Shown here: piece by piece, positions 10,926 to 16,520 of the stretch
Layout: each line of letters begins with the position of its first letter
Position numbering within the stretch: the stretch's first letter is position 1
IMG/VR virus record: IMGVR_UViG_2671180921_000030
Coordinates: 1-45,744 of that record
Reading direction: 5' to 3' (one strand)
Length of the DNA stretch: 45,744 nt
Origin: a virus
Lineage: Duplodnaviria; Heunggongvirae; Uroviricota; Caudoviricetes
Made by a program: the position numbers and the translations under genes
The notes under the pieces: generated by a model
What the model was told of the DNA's origin: nothing
The model's database searches: none
Seen by the model: only the letters and a program-made list of their open reading frames with translations

Positions 10926-11687
10926 ATGGAGACTGTTTTTGACGCACTGAAAGCAATGGGAAAAGCCACATCCATAGAACTTGCTGCGCGACTTGATATC
11001 AGTCGTGAAGAAGTGCTGAACGAACTATGGGAACTGAAAAAGGCTGGTTTTGTTGATAAAAGCGCGTACACCTGGCGTGTGGCTGATAACAACGTTCAGC
11101 AGGAACAGCCAGCGCAGGCAGAACTGCCGGAAGAAACCACCACAGCAACAGTAGCGAAAATCTCAGAGTGCGATTTAACCGCTACGATTGAACAACGCGG
11201 ACCACAAACGGCTGATGAGCTGGCTACATTGTTTGGTACCACATCACGCAAAGCGGCTTCAACGCTGGCAATGGCAATCAGCAAAGGTCGTCTGATTCGC
11301 GTAAATCAGGGCGGTAAATTTCGTTACTGCATGCCGGGCGGTAATTTACCAGCAGAGCCGAAAGCTGCATCGGTAGCGGAAACAGATGGTAAAGCCTTTC
11401 CTCAGCTAGCCGGTGTTGCGTTACCAGTACAGGAAGCTGCAACACAGGAAGATATTAAAACAGAAACTGTGGCGGACATTGTGCAGTCGTTGCCATCGTT
11501 TACTGAAACGCAAGCGGATAACCTGATTTTACCATCGCTGCATATGGCAAACCGTGAACTGCGTCGGGCGAAAAATCATGTCCAGAAGTGGGAGCGAGTC
11601 TGCGCCGCGCTGCGGGAGCTGAACAAGCACCGGGATATTGTTCGACAGATTTTCGATTCCTCCAGTCGTATTGTGTCGGAAAAGTGA
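10926..11687 (+). CDS. Hypothetical phage protein with two winged-helix-like repeats
   Basis: Start trimmed to [13 protein letters not shown]; repeats [30 protein letters not shown] and [33 protein letters not shown]. Confidence 0.4.
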
Positions 11688-12133
11688 TTGCCGGAGGCAC
11701 CTATGGCAAAGTATTTACACCAGAAGAGCGGGAAAAAATTAAAGGGCAGGTTGTTGAACTTGTACGTCTGAGCGGTCGCGAGACGTTACGGGCTCTGGAG
11801 GCTAAAACCGGTGCATCAAGGTATTACATAAGCACTCTCGCCAGAGAACTGGTCGCCAGTGGTGATGTTTACAATTCAGGCTACGGATTATTCCCGTCTG
11901 AGCAGGCTCGTAAGGACTGGCAAAACGCCCGCAAAAAACTATCCAGGGCAAAGGTGAAAAAAACGGTTGTGGTTGATCCTGACCTTATCTGGTCATTACC
12001 AGACGGAGAAATACGCCGCTACGACAGGCGCCTGAATATAATCTGTCGCGAGTGCCGGAAAAGCGAAGTTATGCAGCGTGTACTGGCATTTTACCAGAGT
12101 AATTTCAGGAGGTTGTCTGGTGAGCACGATTAA
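11684..12133 (+). CDS. Hypothetical protein
   Basis: Open frame beginning at a GTG that overlaps the upstream stop; function unknown. Confidence 0.35.
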
Positions 12134-12158
12134 CTACTAGGGGGGATAACAATAAAAT

Positions 12159-12178
12159 AAAGCCTCCTAGGAGGCTTT
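12159..12178. terminator. Perfect 20-bp palindrome, bidirectional terminator
   Basis: AAAGCCTCCTAGGAGGCTTT with A-rich and T-rich flanks between convergent genes; the methyltransferase stop codon is in its centre. Confidence 0.5.
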
Positions 12179-13207
12179 GATTATATTAAGCAAATGTTTT
12201 CCAATCGTTTCAGACATCTTCGGAGGGACCGCATTTCCTATTTGACGAGCCCGAGATTGCAAAGAACCAATAAATTTATAATCCAAAGGAAATGTTTGTA
12301 GACACGCTGCTTCACGAACCGATATTGCTCGATTTTGTGTTGGATGTCCAAAACGTCCATTTGAATAGCTAATACAACGAGTTGTTAGTCCGCTGGCTGG
12401 TTTGTCCCAACTCAAACGTCCATATACGTCTGTATGCCCTTTATGGTTACGATGGCATTCTAAAATCAATTCATCTGGCCAAAATTCTCGACTTCCACCT
12501 TCAGGAGTGCATTTTATTCTACGTAAATTAAGCTCTGATAAGCGTGCAGCTTCATGATCAGGAATACTATTATGCTTTTCTCCTGCTTCTATCTTCGGTA
12601 AATTAGCGATCCAGTCCTTTACTGTTGAATAGGGAGTATTTCCAACCCCATGTGTAGGAGAAGGCAATGCGACATAAAAATCCTTGGATGCAATGAGCAC
12701 TAATCTTTCTCGCGTCTGTGGTACACCGTACCACGCAGCTGGCATTACTTTATAATCTACACTATATCCCTTTGATGAAAGCATTTCTAAAAACATCATG
12801 AATGTTCCTTCATTTTTGTTAAACTTTTGCATTCCTGGCACGTTTTCAACAAAAATAAAATCAGGCATATAATGCTCTACAAAGCGACTGAATTCCTTTA
12901 ATAGATCTAATCGTGGATCATCATTTTTCTTATTTGAGTTTTGCTTAGAGTACGGTTGACAAGGCGCACATCCTGAAAAAAGAATGTAATCATTACGATG
13001 TTTTTTTACTAACTTGTTTATGGCATTGTTGTCGATTAACCTAATGTCCGAGTTAATAAAAGCAGCCTGCGGGAAATTTGCACGAAATGAACTGGCTGCA
13101 TCAACGTCGAAATCGAGGCCAAAAACAATATCCATTCCAGCTTGATGGAAACCTTGGCTGGTTCCACCACAACCGGAAAAGAAGTCAAACACTTTGATTT
13201 TTTTCAT
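12167..13207 (-). CDS. DNA (cytosine-5)-methyltransferase
   Basis: Motif I FDFFSGCGG, motif IV PCQPYS, ENV, QTRERL, GNAVPP; trimmed to MKKIKVF preceded by AGAGGGA; AT-rich by inspection. Confidence 0.85.
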   Translation of the reverse strand: MKKIKVFDFFSGCGGTSQGFHQAGMDIVFGLDFDVDAASSFRANFPQAAFINSDIRLIDNNAINKLVKKHRNDYILFSGCAPCQPYSKQNSNKKNDDPRLDLLKEFSRFVEHYMPDFIFVENVPGMQKFNKNEGTFMMFLEMLSSKGYSVDYKVMPAAWYGVPQTRERLVLIASKDFYVALPSPTHGVGNTPYSTVKDWIANLPKIEAGEKHNSIPDHEAARLSELNLRRIKCTPEGGSREFWPDELILECHRNHKGHTDVYGRLSWDKPASGLTTRCISYSNGRFGHPTQNRAISVREAACLQTFPLDYKFIGSLQSRARQIGNAVPPKMSETIGKHLLNIIKAS

Positions 13208-13230
13208 TTTTCCCTCTGCATCCAGAATCA

Positions 13231-15060
13231 CTACCTAATGATACCACGGTCAAGAGCCTGAGTAATTATTTTTCTTATTTTTATAAATTCAGGCAATTCA
13301 TTTTTAAGTCTTGCGGTCATCATTTGTTGGAGGCAAAAAATTTCCTCTGCATTTACTTCTTCTTTATCATACAGGTGTTGCGCTAATAATCTTATTTGAT
13401 TCTTATACAGTTCTGGATCATTAGAACTCCAGGTCTGTGAATCAATTATTTCTTTTTCACTTGGCGTAATTGCCTTTTCAATGAGTAATTGTTCGGGAGT
13501 ATCAAATGGTAAATACTGCACTTTATTGAATGCATACTCAAGCACTTGCCTTTTGAGTCTATTAGATTCTTGTTCATTTTTTTTGCCATTACTACCACTG
13601 GCATTGATAATTAACTCGCAACCATAATATTTGCACATTGTATTAACTAAATCAGCATCAGCAATTTCACTAATTCTTACTGGTTTTATTTTTTTGTTGT
13701 TATCACCATCAAGTAAAAACAAAATATCATTGCGTTCTACCACAGCGTAACTGGGAAGATGCTTGCTTAAAATGGTCTCCGAACCACCTGGTATATAACT
13801 TACACTAAATGATAAGCTTAATCTTTCATCATTTTTAATCGCTTTATCTATAATTGCTTTAGCTAATTTATCTTCTACAATTATTGTTTTCTTGTTAATA
13901 TCATGCCCTAGCTCTATAAAAGCTTCATCCGGTGCTATATTTTGAACTATTTTAGCTGTTTCACTCTCTTCATCAAAAACAAATAATTTAATGGCATCTT
14001 TGGGAAGAGTGTTCACAATAACAGGAGAATGGGTTGATATTACCACTTGATGTTTTTTCTGCTCAACAATAGAGTACAGAACATCCATCATCCTTTTTTG
14101 TGCACCAGGGTGAAGTGAAACTTCTGGTTCGTCAAGAAGAATTAATGAATTAGGTTTGGCCGAATAAATATTGAGTATTAGTGAAACTATTGCAAATTCA
14201 CCACTTCCAGCAAACGCTTCTGTATAGTTCAACTTATCAGTTGAAAGTAAAGCGGTTCCTCCTCTGGTTCCAAATAACCGATGCTCAAGAAATTTAATGA
14301 CTTTATATTTTTTCCCTAATATAAATGAGACGTGCTCAACTAGTTCTGGCGCCAAGGTTATATTTTTAACAATGGTTTCCGCCCCCCAGAGTCTTAAATT
14401 ACTTAGCTTTTCATCAAAAGCTTTCTTTATATATTTAGATTTGCTTCTGATATAGTCTTGCTTTGTAATTAATACACCACTCTTCTTCTTTCTTAATTTA
14501 AAATCAGAGTGATACATACATCTATCAAATGCACTTATTTCCGATCTGAAATCTAGGAAAACCAATCCCTTCTTGATTTTTTTCCATCTGGTTGCATTAC
14601 TATTAGCACCCAGATCATCCGAAATACTCTCCATGTTATCACCAACAGATGGTCGACTTGTTTCCCAATAATCGATTGTTTTCTTGGTAGCATTGATACG
14701 TGCTTGGAGTATTTCAACTAAACGGCCATCAGCATTTTTATATCCATATATATATCTAGGTTTAAGAGAACTGCCATCAGCAAGTTTTAGGTCAGGAAAC
14801 TCATCTGTTTCAGTTGTGAACCAATAACGAGTTATATTTTTACCATGTGGGCAACCAAATAGCGCTTTGATAACAGAACTTTTATTAGTTCCATTTTTTC
14901 CTACTAAAGCCGTTATAGGGAACTGAAAATCGATCCTTGCATTCTGCTCTATATTTTTAAAGTATGGAAAACGGATATGTTGTATGAATGGTTCAAATTC
15001 ACCGTTTTTTAACGCGCACTGGAGTGTTCGAATTTTGCTCTTGTATGCGGAAGTGCTCAT
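13231..15060 (-). CDS. OLD-family ABC-ATPase with C-terminal TOPRIM nuclease domain
   Basis: Walker A LVGKNGTNKSS, Walker B/D-loop LLDEPEVSLHP, H-loop ISTHSP, TOPRIM-like IIVEDK and LFLLDGDN; 23-nt gap to downstream methyltransferase. Confidence 0.75.
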   Translation of the reverse strand: MSTSAYKSKIRTLQCALKNGEFEPFIQHIRFPYFKNIEQNARIDFQFPITALVGKNGTNKSSVIKALFGCPHGKNITRYWFTTETDEFPDLKLADGSSLKPRYIYGYKNADGRLVEILQARINATKKTIDYWETSRPSVGDNMESISDDLGANSNATRWKKIKKGLVFLDFRSEISAFDRCMYHSDFKLRKKKSGVLITKQDYIRSKSKYIKKAFDEKLSNLRLWGAETIVKNITLAPELVEHVSFILGKKYKVIKFLEHRLFGTRGGTALLSTDKLNYTEAFAGSGEFAIVSLILNIYSAKPNSLILLDEPEVSLHPGAQKRMMDVLYSIVEQKKHQVVISTHSPVIVNTLPKDAIKLFVFDEESETAKIVQNIAPDEAFIELGHDINKKTIIVEDKLAKAIIDKAIKNDERLSLSFSVSYIPGGSETILSKHLPSYAVVERNDILFLLDGDNNKKIKPVRISEIADADLVNTMCKYYGCELIINASGSNGKKNEQESNRLKRQVLEYAFNKVQYLPFDTPEQLLIEKAITPSEKEIIDSQTWSSNDPELYKNQIRLLAQHLYDKEEVNAEEIFCLQQMMTARLKNELPEFIKIRKIITQALDRGIIR

Positions 15061-15208
15061 TGTTTACTAAAGTCCATAATAGGCTATTAACAGGTTGAGG
15101 ATGACATGATAACGATTTTTAATGCAGATAAAAGAGGTTTGTTGGTTAGCACACAACAGAAAAAGTGACCTTACCGCTTGAACGAAAGGTAAGGGTAAGT
15201 AGGCTGTG

Positions 15209-15361
15209 ATGCAGCAAAAGACGATGTTAACCGCCCTGATCGTCATCTGTTTAACCGTCATTGTTACGGCACTGGTAACGAGAAAAGACCTCTGCGAGGT
15301 ACGAATCCGAACCGGCCAGACGGAGGTCGCTGTCTTCACAGCTTACGAACCTGAGGAGTAA
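15209..15361 (+). CDS. hok: Hok/Gef-family type I toxin
   Basis: 50-aa ORF below the track cutoff: MQQKTMLTALIVICLTVIVTALVTRKDLCEVRIRTGQTEVAVFTAYEPEE, almost identical to my recollection of HokD/RelF. Confidence 0.75.
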   Translation: MQQKTMLTALIVICLTVIVTALVTRKDLCEVRIRTGQTEVAVFTAYEPEE

Positions 15362-15429
15362 GAGACTAGGCGAGGGAGAAATCCCTCGCCACCTCTGATG
15401 AGTCAGGCATCCTCAACGCACCCGCGCTT

Positions 15430-15452
15430 AACCCGTTTCGGCGGGTTTTTTG
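15430..15452 (+). terminator. Rho-independent terminator downstream of hok
   Basis: Stem acccg/cgggt followed by T6. Confidence 0.5.
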
Positions 15453-15483
15453 TTGCGCGCTGAATACGCAGGGTGAAAAATAA

Positions 15484-15556
15484 CCATATATTTGATTATA
15501 TACACAACACAAAATAAAAGTCATTGTACCTGCACATTAAATAATCAAATATATGG
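15484..15556. repeat. Perfect 16-bp inverted repeat pair with 41-bp spacer
   Basis: CCATATATTTGATTAT (15484..15499) and its exact reverse complement ATAATCAAATATATGG (15541..15556). Confidence 0.6.
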
Positions 15557-15636
15557 CGTGAAATAAATATTTTTCAGATTAATATTTTTGTCTCTATGTG
15601 GATATAACCTTTTGTACTTATAAACCTGGAGGCATC

Positions 15637-15849
15637 GTGGAAAAAATAAAGAAACTATTTAGTAGCAAATACGCAGTCATACGTCGTGATGACCTGTCAG
15701 TTATAGTCGAAATGGATTACTTCCCTGAAATCCCAAAATCAATGATGTATCGTAATGGTCGAAAGGCAATTTTTTTACCGATGAGGGTAAGTGACATTAT
15801 GGGAAATGATAAACTGCTGGATGAATTGCGAGTCAGAGCATCCTGTTAG
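15637..15849 (+). CDS. Hypothetical nin-region protein
   Basis: Trimmed to GTG preceded by GGAGG. Confidence 0.35.
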   Translation: MEKIKKLFSSKYAVIRRDDLSVIVEMDYFPEIPKSMMYRNGRKAIFLPMRVSDIMGNDKLLDELRVRASC

Positions 15850-15920
15850 TATTGGCATTAATTCTGGTATACTACATAACGGGCTGAACACCCATTCTAC
15901 TGCGCCAGCGGAGAACTACG

Positions 15921-16520
15921 ATGGCGCATATACAACTGGTCAAACAAACCTCTTCCGGATTACTTCTCCCGGCGACGCCGGAGAGTTGCGATTTTTTGCA
16001 TCAAATCAAAATAGGTGAGTGGATACACGCAGACTTTAAGCGTGTGCGTAACTATGCATTTCACAAGCGTTTTTTCAAACTTCTGCAACTTGGATTCGAT
16101 TACTGGACTCCGGTCGGTGGGGCGATCACACCTCGCGAACGAGAAATGGTGTTCGGCTTCGTTGATTACCTGTGTGAATCAGTAGGCAGGGAACATACGC
16201 CAGCTCTGAGTGATGCCGCGGAACAATATCTGAATACCGTTGCGACACGCAGAACCCAGGATATGGCATTGCTCAAATCATTTGACGCTTTCCGCGAGTG
16301 GGTGACCATTCAGGCCGGCTTCTACACCGAGCATTTTTATCCAGACGGTAGCCGCGGGCGTCGGGCGAAGTCCATTGCTTTTGCGAATATGGACGAAACT
16401 GAATTTCAACAGGTTTATAAAGCTGTACTTAACGTCCTGTGGAACTGGATCCTGTTCCGTAAATTCTCCTCTCTGGAGGAAGTCGAAAATGTGGCCGCGC
16501 AGATACTGGAGTTTGCGTAA
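15921..16520 (+). CDS. Nin-region protein (YbcN/DUF1367-like, tentative)
   Basis: 199-aa ORF with GGAGA upstream; position before YbcO-like gene and Q. Confidence 0.5.
   Translation: MAHIQLVKQTSSGLLLPATPESCDFLHQIKIGEWIHADFKRVRNYAFHKRFFKLLQLGFDYWTPVGGAITPREREMVFGFVDYLCESVGREHTPALSDAAEQYLNTVATRRTQDMALLKSFDAFREWVTIQAGFYTEHFYPDGSRGRRAKSIAFANMDETEFQQVYKAVLNVLWNWILFRKFSSLEEVENVAAQILEFA

Follow-up and report, generated by a model that had tools for sequence, protein, structure and literature searches.

Does a gene coding for an ABC ATPase fused to a TOPRIM nuclease domain, when it lies immediately upstream of a C5 cytosine DNA methyltransferase gene, belong with that neighbour to one system? This question is raised by the IMG/VR virus record IMGVR_UViG_2671180921_000030, whose 45,744 nt constitute the window analysed here. 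The two genes are co-directional on the minus strand, span positions 12167-15060 and are separated by 23 nt. An earlier interpretation made without database searches (the sequence-only reading) had proposed that they form a restriction–modification (R-M)-like defence operon with a nuclease of the OLD family. We found that the two genes are a conserved, co-inherited unit and that their pairing is not accidental. As to its function, we favour, with a confidence midway between belief and doubt, one mobile, methylation-coupled OLD-family module that serves both defence and addiction by R-M-like logic and is probably guided by the methyltransferase.

Linkage of the ATPase/TOPRIM and methyltransferase genes

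The linkage was followed from both genes. Seven homologues of the ATPase gene (38-83% identity), coming from Citrobacter, Serratia, Yersinia, Bradyrhizobium, Microbulbifer and, as two paralogues, E. coli, lie in unrelated genomic contexts, and each of the seven has a PF00145 gene directly downstream. The reciprocal look-up placed an ATPase gene directly upstream of the methyltransferase gene in five of five methyltransferase homologues (60-78% identity). A broader survey, restricted to one genome per species, comprised 80 loci in which open reading frames were called and methyltransferases were then sought by an iterated profile search. These loci span more than 10 phyla, including Proteobacteria, Actinobacteria, Acidobacteria, Bacteroidota, Firmicutes, Patescibacteria, Nitrospirota and Myxococcota. 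Three contigs were too short to be assessed; at 76 of the remaining 77 loci a C5 methyltransferase gene was present in or beside the operon, the sole locus lacking it being that of Agromyces. The gene abutted the ATPase gene on the same strand at 55 loci, was separated from it by one or two genes of the same operon at 16, and lay nearby on the opposite strand at five. The partner enzymes were always of the C5 type, never N6 or N4, and, when grouped at 50% identity, formed at least nine clusters whose target-recognition regions diverge. The gene order was variable (methyltransferase downstream in 33 loci and upstream in 21) and overlaps of 1-4 nt between the cassette genes were common, as is expected of selected operons.

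The two genes have also diverged together. The divergence of the ATPase correlated with that of the methyltransferase (r=0.69, Mantel p=0.001), and the correlation persisted among distant pairs (r=0.61). Among 5,426 complete E. coli genomes both genes occurred in the same 32, and either gene alone in none. The decayed copies that we saw (strain EC11 and survey locus L022) all combined a broken ATPase gene with an intact methyltransferase gene; in EC11 (NZ_CP027255.1 4653520-4656414), a 1-nt indel splits the former. Such decay of the ATPase gene alone would follow from a nuclease that is toxic unless the methyltransferase is present. The expectation of the sequence-only reading that the pair would recur as a unit in other genomes was thus borne out by the survey, the reciprocal look-up, the co-divergence and the E. 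coli distribution alike.

The two proteins and their nearest known relatives

The first gene (13231..15060, minus strand) codes for a protein of 609 residues that matched Pfam AAA_21/AAA_15. Its best PADLOC match was the HEC-04 profile (E 2e-34), followed by the retron ATPase-Toprim_I-B profile (E 3e-26), both aligning through residues 459-464, and it was modelled by AlphaFold2 at a pLDDT of 87. The ABC ATPase head occupies approximately residues 1-375 (13936..15060) and carries Walker A (G54-K60-S61), the signature/Walker B region (D310-E311), the H-loop (H344) and family-specific inserts. It is followed by a TOPRIM nuclease core at about residues 385-460 (13681..13908), marked by E396-D397, G426 and D451-x-D453, so that the N-terminal ABC motifs and the C-terminal TOPRIM with Glu and DxD ligands characteristic of the OLD family are all found. 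The remaining C-terminal helical region (residues 461-609; 13234..13680) is poorly conserved except for P518, E523 and K553, and in the model it aligns with the helices that come after TOPRIM in OLD C-terminal structures. E396-D397, D451, D453, K553, Walker A, Walker B and the H-loop were invariant in an alignment of 58 members and subsequently in one of 93.

By sequence, the closest solved structure was TsOLD (6p74), and structural alignment placed the predicted TOPRIM fold nearest to BpOLD/XccOLD, TsOLD and AriB, at 13-16% identity. The GajA profile of PADLOC matched only the ATPase signature region. The profile scores are modest but their ranking is specific, and an ABC ATPase fused to an OLD-type TOPRIM nuclease domain is therefore confirmed; the architecture read earlier from motifs is upheld by the Pfam and PADLOC matches, the conserved residues and the structural comparison. 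There was no match to a restriction endonuclease family of Pfam or NCBIfam, and other matches were weak: TIGR04435, a 'restriction system-associated AAA ATPase', reached 36 bits against a cut-off of 300, and MAD3 was matched at E 1.5e-13 in PADLOC and at 37 bits against a cut-off of 420 in NCBIfam (NF047739). The family is discrete, with 561 representatives (50%-identity clusters) at E<=1e-30 among 1.84 billion, nearly all of about 600 residues.

The second gene (12167..13207, minus strand, ATG start) codes for a protein of 346 residues, which by its sequence is to be classed as a C5 DNA methyltransferase in which every catalytic motif is present. It matched PF00145 (E 4.9e-61), PADLOC MTase_II (E 1e-96) and TIGR00675 dcm, consistent with the Dcm-type assignment proposed from its motifs. 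Among solved structures it is nearest to the catalytic domains of DNMT1 (E 1e-38), with further matches to HaeIII and HhaI. The protein is closer to the eukaryotic DNMT1 catalytic domains, including the YGRLxWD region, than to the classical bacterial HhaI/HaeIII enzymes, and we refer to it as DNMT1-like. Among 60 partner methyltransferases of the survey, the FxGxGG, PCQ, ENV, QxRxR and GNAVPP motifs were at least 95% conserved, and therefore the methylation chemistry itself is under selection and the protein is not a mere scaffold. We considered identity with HgiDII, as a 63%-identical methyltransferase is labelled 'M.HgiDII' in one source, and rejected it: R.HgiDII is a GHKL protein, not an ABC-TOPRIM protein. 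With 6 sites where 7.8 would be expected, the window shows no depletion of GTCGAC.

Among validated systems, the nearest relatives are HEC-04 and IbfA, which likewise are mobile and consist of an ABC ATPase fused to an OLD-like TOPRIM. Defence by HEC-04 depends on its Walker A and TOPRIM E/DxD residues, and induction of the protein is toxic (10.1101/2024.01.29.577857); its metal-site residues E319/D375/D377 would, judging by the offset, correspond to E396/D451/D453 of the present protein. However, HEC-04 and IbfA are solo proteins of about 494-518 residues, whereas the family described here has about 600 residues, N-terminal inserts of its own, C-terminal helices and a C5 methyltransferase partner. 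The HEC-04 profile was matched only in part (residues 232-459 against profile positions 160-383 of 494), and no IbfA-bearing plasmid attained a tblastn E of 1e-6. The partial profile match, the absence of similarity at the BLAST level and the methyltransferase neighbour rule out membership in HEC-04/IbfA.

OLD classes are set by genetic context, namely solo, with a UvrD-like helicase, with the reverse transcriptase plus ncRNA of a retron, or split into ATPase and DUF4435. The sequence-only reading had described OLD-family systems as solitary or paired with a helicase; both classes exist, but the description omitted retron class 3, PARIS, HEC-04/IbfA and MADS. Classes 1-3 (P2 Old/TsOLD, Gabija GajA and retron Eco8) and PARIS AriA/AriB share the ABC head and the TOPRIM with its E/DxD residues, and differ in that a C5 methyltransferase partner does not occur in this class scheme and in the low identity of the structural alignments given above. 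The regular methyltransferase neighbour of the survey sets the family apart from the solo class 1, and no helicase was adjacent in the window or in the conserved neighbourhoods, as Gabija (class 2) would have. Neither a neighbouring reverse transcriptase gene nor an Rfam match in 11000-16500 was found, so that the match to the retron I-B effector (class 3) reflects homology only; the separate or fused AriA plus DUF4435-type AriB by which PARIS is defined was likewise not found.

Two kinds of methylation-associated systems were also compared. With type II and type III R-M systems the cassette shares an adjacent, co-inherited nuclease and methyltransferase with intact motifs, variable gene order, mobility and decay of the nuclease alone, but its nuclease is TOPRIM plus ABC ATPase, not PD-(D/E)XK, HNH, GIY-YIG, PLD or half-pipe. 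TOPRIM is absent from the 2008 classification of restriction endonuclease folds, and as an R-M nuclease this fold would be unprecedented. MADS, for which an association of ABC ATPase and TOPRIM is listed, is methylation-associated too, and the weak MAD3 matches recall it. It is reportedly a multi-gene system of eight genes; the cassette has two, and the NF047739 score lies far below its cut-off, so that it is not a MADS member.

By sequence and gene content, then, the cassette appears to fit no published OLD class, and its pairing appears to be without a published characterisation in the literature searched. In line with the sequence-only reading, no described system combining OLD/TOPRIM with a cytosine methyltransferase was found in that literature, which did not extend to REBASE or to one key classification paper.

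Layout and genomic setting of the cassette

The 23-nt spacer (13208..13230, minus strand) contains a GAGGG Shine-Dalgarno-like element ahead of the methyltransferase ATG, and a spacing of 23 nt is found identically in the Citrobacter, Serratia and Enterobacter cassettes. A perfect 20-bp palindrome, AAAGCCTCCTAGGAGGCTTT, is centred on the methyltransferase stop codon and has a T-tract after it. Together with T-tracts this palindrome makes up a predicted bidirectional intrinsic terminator (12151..12179, both strands); as the terminator scan predicted it on both strands, it would therefore also serve the convergent DUF977 gene. The palindrome (12158-12179) includes CCTAGG, with CTAG at its centre. 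The terminator would also halt early-right prophage transcription running antisense into the cassette. The GC content of the cassette is 34-40%, compared with about 50% in the flanks. Thus, the layout described by the sequence-only reading, that is, the motifs quoted for both proteins, the strand, the gap, the palindromic terminator centred on the stop codon and the AT-richness, was recovered in full.

Upstream of the ATPase start lies an intergenic region (15061..15205) that we presume to contain the promoter. A consensus scan of it detected no sigma-70-like site, and a promoter scan found promoter-like sites inside the cassette to be no commoner than in shuffles. The region ends at a divergent hok/gef-family toxin gene (15206-15361, plus strand), 145 nt from the ATPase start. 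Matches to this gene at 90-95% identity occur in over 4,000 E. coli genomes, and Rfam gave no Sok/Hok RNA match at the gathering threshold.

A copy of the cassette that is 99.6% identical resides in a Rac-type lambdoid prophage at ttcA of E. coli, where the RefSeq names of the two products are 'ATP-dependent nuclease' and 'DNA cytosine methyltransferase'. That copy lies between ydaU/ydaV/DUF1627/DUF977 and hok/DUF1367/DUF1364. An identical cassette is found in E. coli ATCC 8739, a widely used laboratory strain (NZ_CP043852.1 1004746-1007639).

The cassette of the window is situated between DUF977 and nin-like genes. In two sibling prophages the same slot is occupied by IetA/IetS, and in an O157:H7 strain by QueH together with a C5-methyltransferase/NgoMIV-family R-M system. 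The occupation of the slot by IetAS or an NgoMIV-type system marks it as a defence hotspot. Elsewhere, family members directly follow a cI-type repressor gene (Pseudomonas, Pasteurella), adjoin an integrase gene at the end of a prophage, or, in E. coli and Klebsiella, fill the stx slot between Q and holin. These insertion sites are classic positions of lysogen-expressed morons, and with the contents of the sibling slot they agree with the defence-island or moron setting suggested from the window.

In lambdoid prophages of E. coli and Klebsiella, the cassette that separates the Q antiterminator gene from the holin genes is paralogous, with an ATPase 39% and a methyltransferase 62% identical to those of the window, and occupies the position of stx in Stx phages (survey loci L007-L012, 5001-7835; L096/L097, 3212-6050). 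In Klebsiella it adjoins HicAB. A second PF00145 gene is present in the Serratia prophage. Most contexts are prophages, yet a search of 50,697 deposited phage genomes found no ATPase relative. Among 72,556 plasmids there was a single full-length relative, distant, on pCEST-001D of Clostridium estertheticum (L108), with no methyltransferase nearby.

Mode of action and competing explanations

In the module that we favour, the C5 methyltransferase would methylate cytosines of host and prophage DNA and mark them as self, and the ABC-ATPase/TOPRIM protein would be a toxic, ATP-dependent effector kept off self by methyltransferase activity; methylation would protect, and the substrate would be DNA. 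The methyltransferase may supply target recognition or a read-out of methylation and so play the part that Mod plays for Res in type III systems, the two proteins presumably interacting. The ABC ATPase would then be permitted to switch on TOPRIM cleavage either when DNA lacking methylation enters the cell or when methylation is lost. Of this proposal, our data show the domains, the intact catalytic residues, the linkage, the co-divergence, the selection on methylation, the asymmetric decay and the mobility into moron and hotspot sites.

Larger operons carrying the same ATPase/TOPRIM gene bear on this mechanism. In seven Bacteroidota species the operon reads methyltransferase - R.HpaII (PF09561, E 2e-144) - ATPase/TOPRIM with overlaps of 1-4 nt (L062, 1623-5712; also L057, L066, L073, L074, L076 and L078), the methyltransferase having about 421 residues. 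The OLD-like gene is here the translationally coupled third gene of a complete type II R-M system. Other loci have a GHKL protein, R.HgiDII/NmeAIP-like, encoded between the methyltransferase and ATPase genes; R.HgiDII and R.NmeAIP are reported with a GHKL architecture in the 2008 restriction endonuclease classification. Still others show a Dcm - HEF_HK - Response_reg_2 - ATPase/TOPRIM - Vsr operon (L055, 2-7201; L069, L090, L077, L065 and L094), with a HEF_HK/GHKL protein of about 1000 residues and a Response_reg_2 protein of about 550. Such operons resemble the two-component-system-like HEF_HK/Response_reg_2 R-M modules with a C5 methyltransferase (PMC8011034), for which no AAA_15, OLD or TOPRIM is mentioned; the cassette of the window has no histidine kinase or response regulator genes. 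The ABC-ATPase/TOPRIM gene would be an added component of the system described there. In all the R.HpaII, GHKL and histidine kinase/response regulator operons, both the ATPase and the TOPRIM part retain their catalytic residues.

Recognition is most likely provided by the methyltransferase, because a nuclease without a region that clearly tracks the methyltransferase clade works beside the nine or more methyltransferase clusters and beside HpaII-type systems. Several observations nevertheless weigh against the mechanism outlined above. When ATPase blocks were compared within and between methyltransferase clades, none clearly stood out (ratios 1.0-1.6), which would argue against intrinsic specificity of the nuclease, and guidance by the methyltransferase is a step that we infer. 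The intact protein beside complete HpaII-type, GHKL and histidine kinase/response regulator systems indicates that it is not simply 'the' restriction enzyme. Generic R-M logic does not predict that only C5 methylation should be used, and the scans found neither a promoter nor an arrangement by which the methyltransferase would be expressed first. HEC-04 and IbfA defend as single genes without a methyltransferase (10.1101/2024.01.29.577857; PMC12111858). Finally, recent evidence shows that TOPRIM effectors of the OLD family are often abortive tRNases, as P2 OLD and PARIS AriB are (PMC12839542), which complicates an R-M mechanism.

The main rival, which we regard as somewhat unlikely yet ahead of every other alternative, is a guard or backup abortive-infection module of the PrrC/EcoprrI or PARIS kind. 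The ATPase would monitor the methyltransferase, or its R-M or methylation machinery; upon inhibition or depletion by a phage, TOPRIM would be released on tRNA or bulk DNA and the cell killed, the methyltransferase being both bait and antitoxin. PrrC is a HEPN anticodon nuclease that accompanies a type I R-M system. Like PrrC-EcoprrI and the OLD-ABC 'backup effectors' (PMC12839542), the cassette combines an ABC-ATPase-linked nuclease with a methylation-based system, and by this analogy such embedding could explain the operons of three to five genes, in which complete R-M operons (M/R.HpaII; GHKL; histidine kinase/response regulator plus Vsr) carry the intact protein as an addition. In the same vein, OLD-ABC plus TOPRIM proteins in BREX/RM-like systems have been interpreted as 'backup suicidal effectors' (PMC12839542), and HEC systems are found inside the methylase-containing Hma system (10.1101/2024.01.29.577857). 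The apparent absence of a specificity-like variable domain from the ATPase protein also suits a guard, as does the triggering of the P2 OLD and AriB tRNases by phage proteins. Yet the main form of the family is a bare pair of methyltransferase and nuclease without a primary restriction enzyme, and at 55 of the 77 loci there is therefore none to guard. The near-invariant catalytic motifs, moreover, indicate selection on methylation itself, and we know of no phage inhibitor of type II C5 methyltransferases that could be a common trigger. A guard hence accounts better than the methylation-coupled module for the multi-gene operons and worse for the dominance of bare two-gene cassettes.

It is improbable that the cassette is mainly an addiction module, in which an R-M-like toxin-antitoxin pair stabilises prophages or islands by post-segregational killing and defence is incidental. 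The strict co-inheritance, the decay of the nuclease gene only and the location of cassettes at prophage ends beside integrases, adjoining hok/gef or HicAB loci, are in keeping with it. On the other hand, validated defence systems occupy the hotspot slot of sibling prophages and the nearest validated relatives are anti-phage; addiction and defence are in any case not mutually exclusive.

The two lowest-ranked alternatives can be dealt with briefly. Prophages often carry orphan Dcm-like methyltransferases, and the single-gene action of HEC-04 and IbfA and the second PF00145 gene of the Serratia prophage might suggest two independent neighbouring morons, one a stand-alone HEC-04-like gene and the other an orphan methyltransferase evading host restriction; this is very improbable, being effectively refuted by the conservation data (76 of 77 loci, five of five reciprocal look-ups, co-divergence, translational coupling and no separation in 5,426 E. 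coli genomes). Least probable of all is protection and cleavage at the RNA level, with a TOPRIM tRNase of the P2 OLD or PARIS kind and a DNMT-fold enzyme methylating host tRNA in the manner of DNMT2, since the weak DNMT2/tRNA m5C-type structure matches (4h0n, E 5e-11; 9hgm, E 5e-6) are far surpassed by those to the DNA enzymes DNMT1, HaeIII and HhaI and to the PADLOC type II profile, and family members lie beside M.HpaII-type enzymes with R.HpaII and beside Vsr, a DNA T:G mismatch endonuclease.

Returning to the methylation-coupled module, we tentatively suggest, with the balance of our judgement somewhat on the side of doubt, that the cassette is the first example of a new and widespread OLD class, a 'methyltransferase-coupled OLD'. 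In such a class a C5 methyltransferase would give recognition and self-marking to an ABC-ATPase/TOPRIM protein, which would amount to an ATP-dependent R-M type, and the nuclease would be portable onto HpaII-, GHKL- and histidine-kinase-type m5C systems.

OLD-family ABC-TOPRIM proteins are among the commonest defence effectors, and the way in which they are triggered is under active study. The family described here lies on prophage morons of clinically relevant Enterobacteriaceae, and PADLOC 2.0 does not recognise it as a system. Its near-exceptionless tie to a C5 methyltransferase would connect the OLD family to epigenetic discrimination of self from non-self. If the ATPase is a guard, the family would provide a sensor that watches the DNA methylation machinery; if it is a methyltransferase-guided R-M nuclease, TOPRIM would join the short list of restriction-nuclease folds, as one of an ATP-dependent type.

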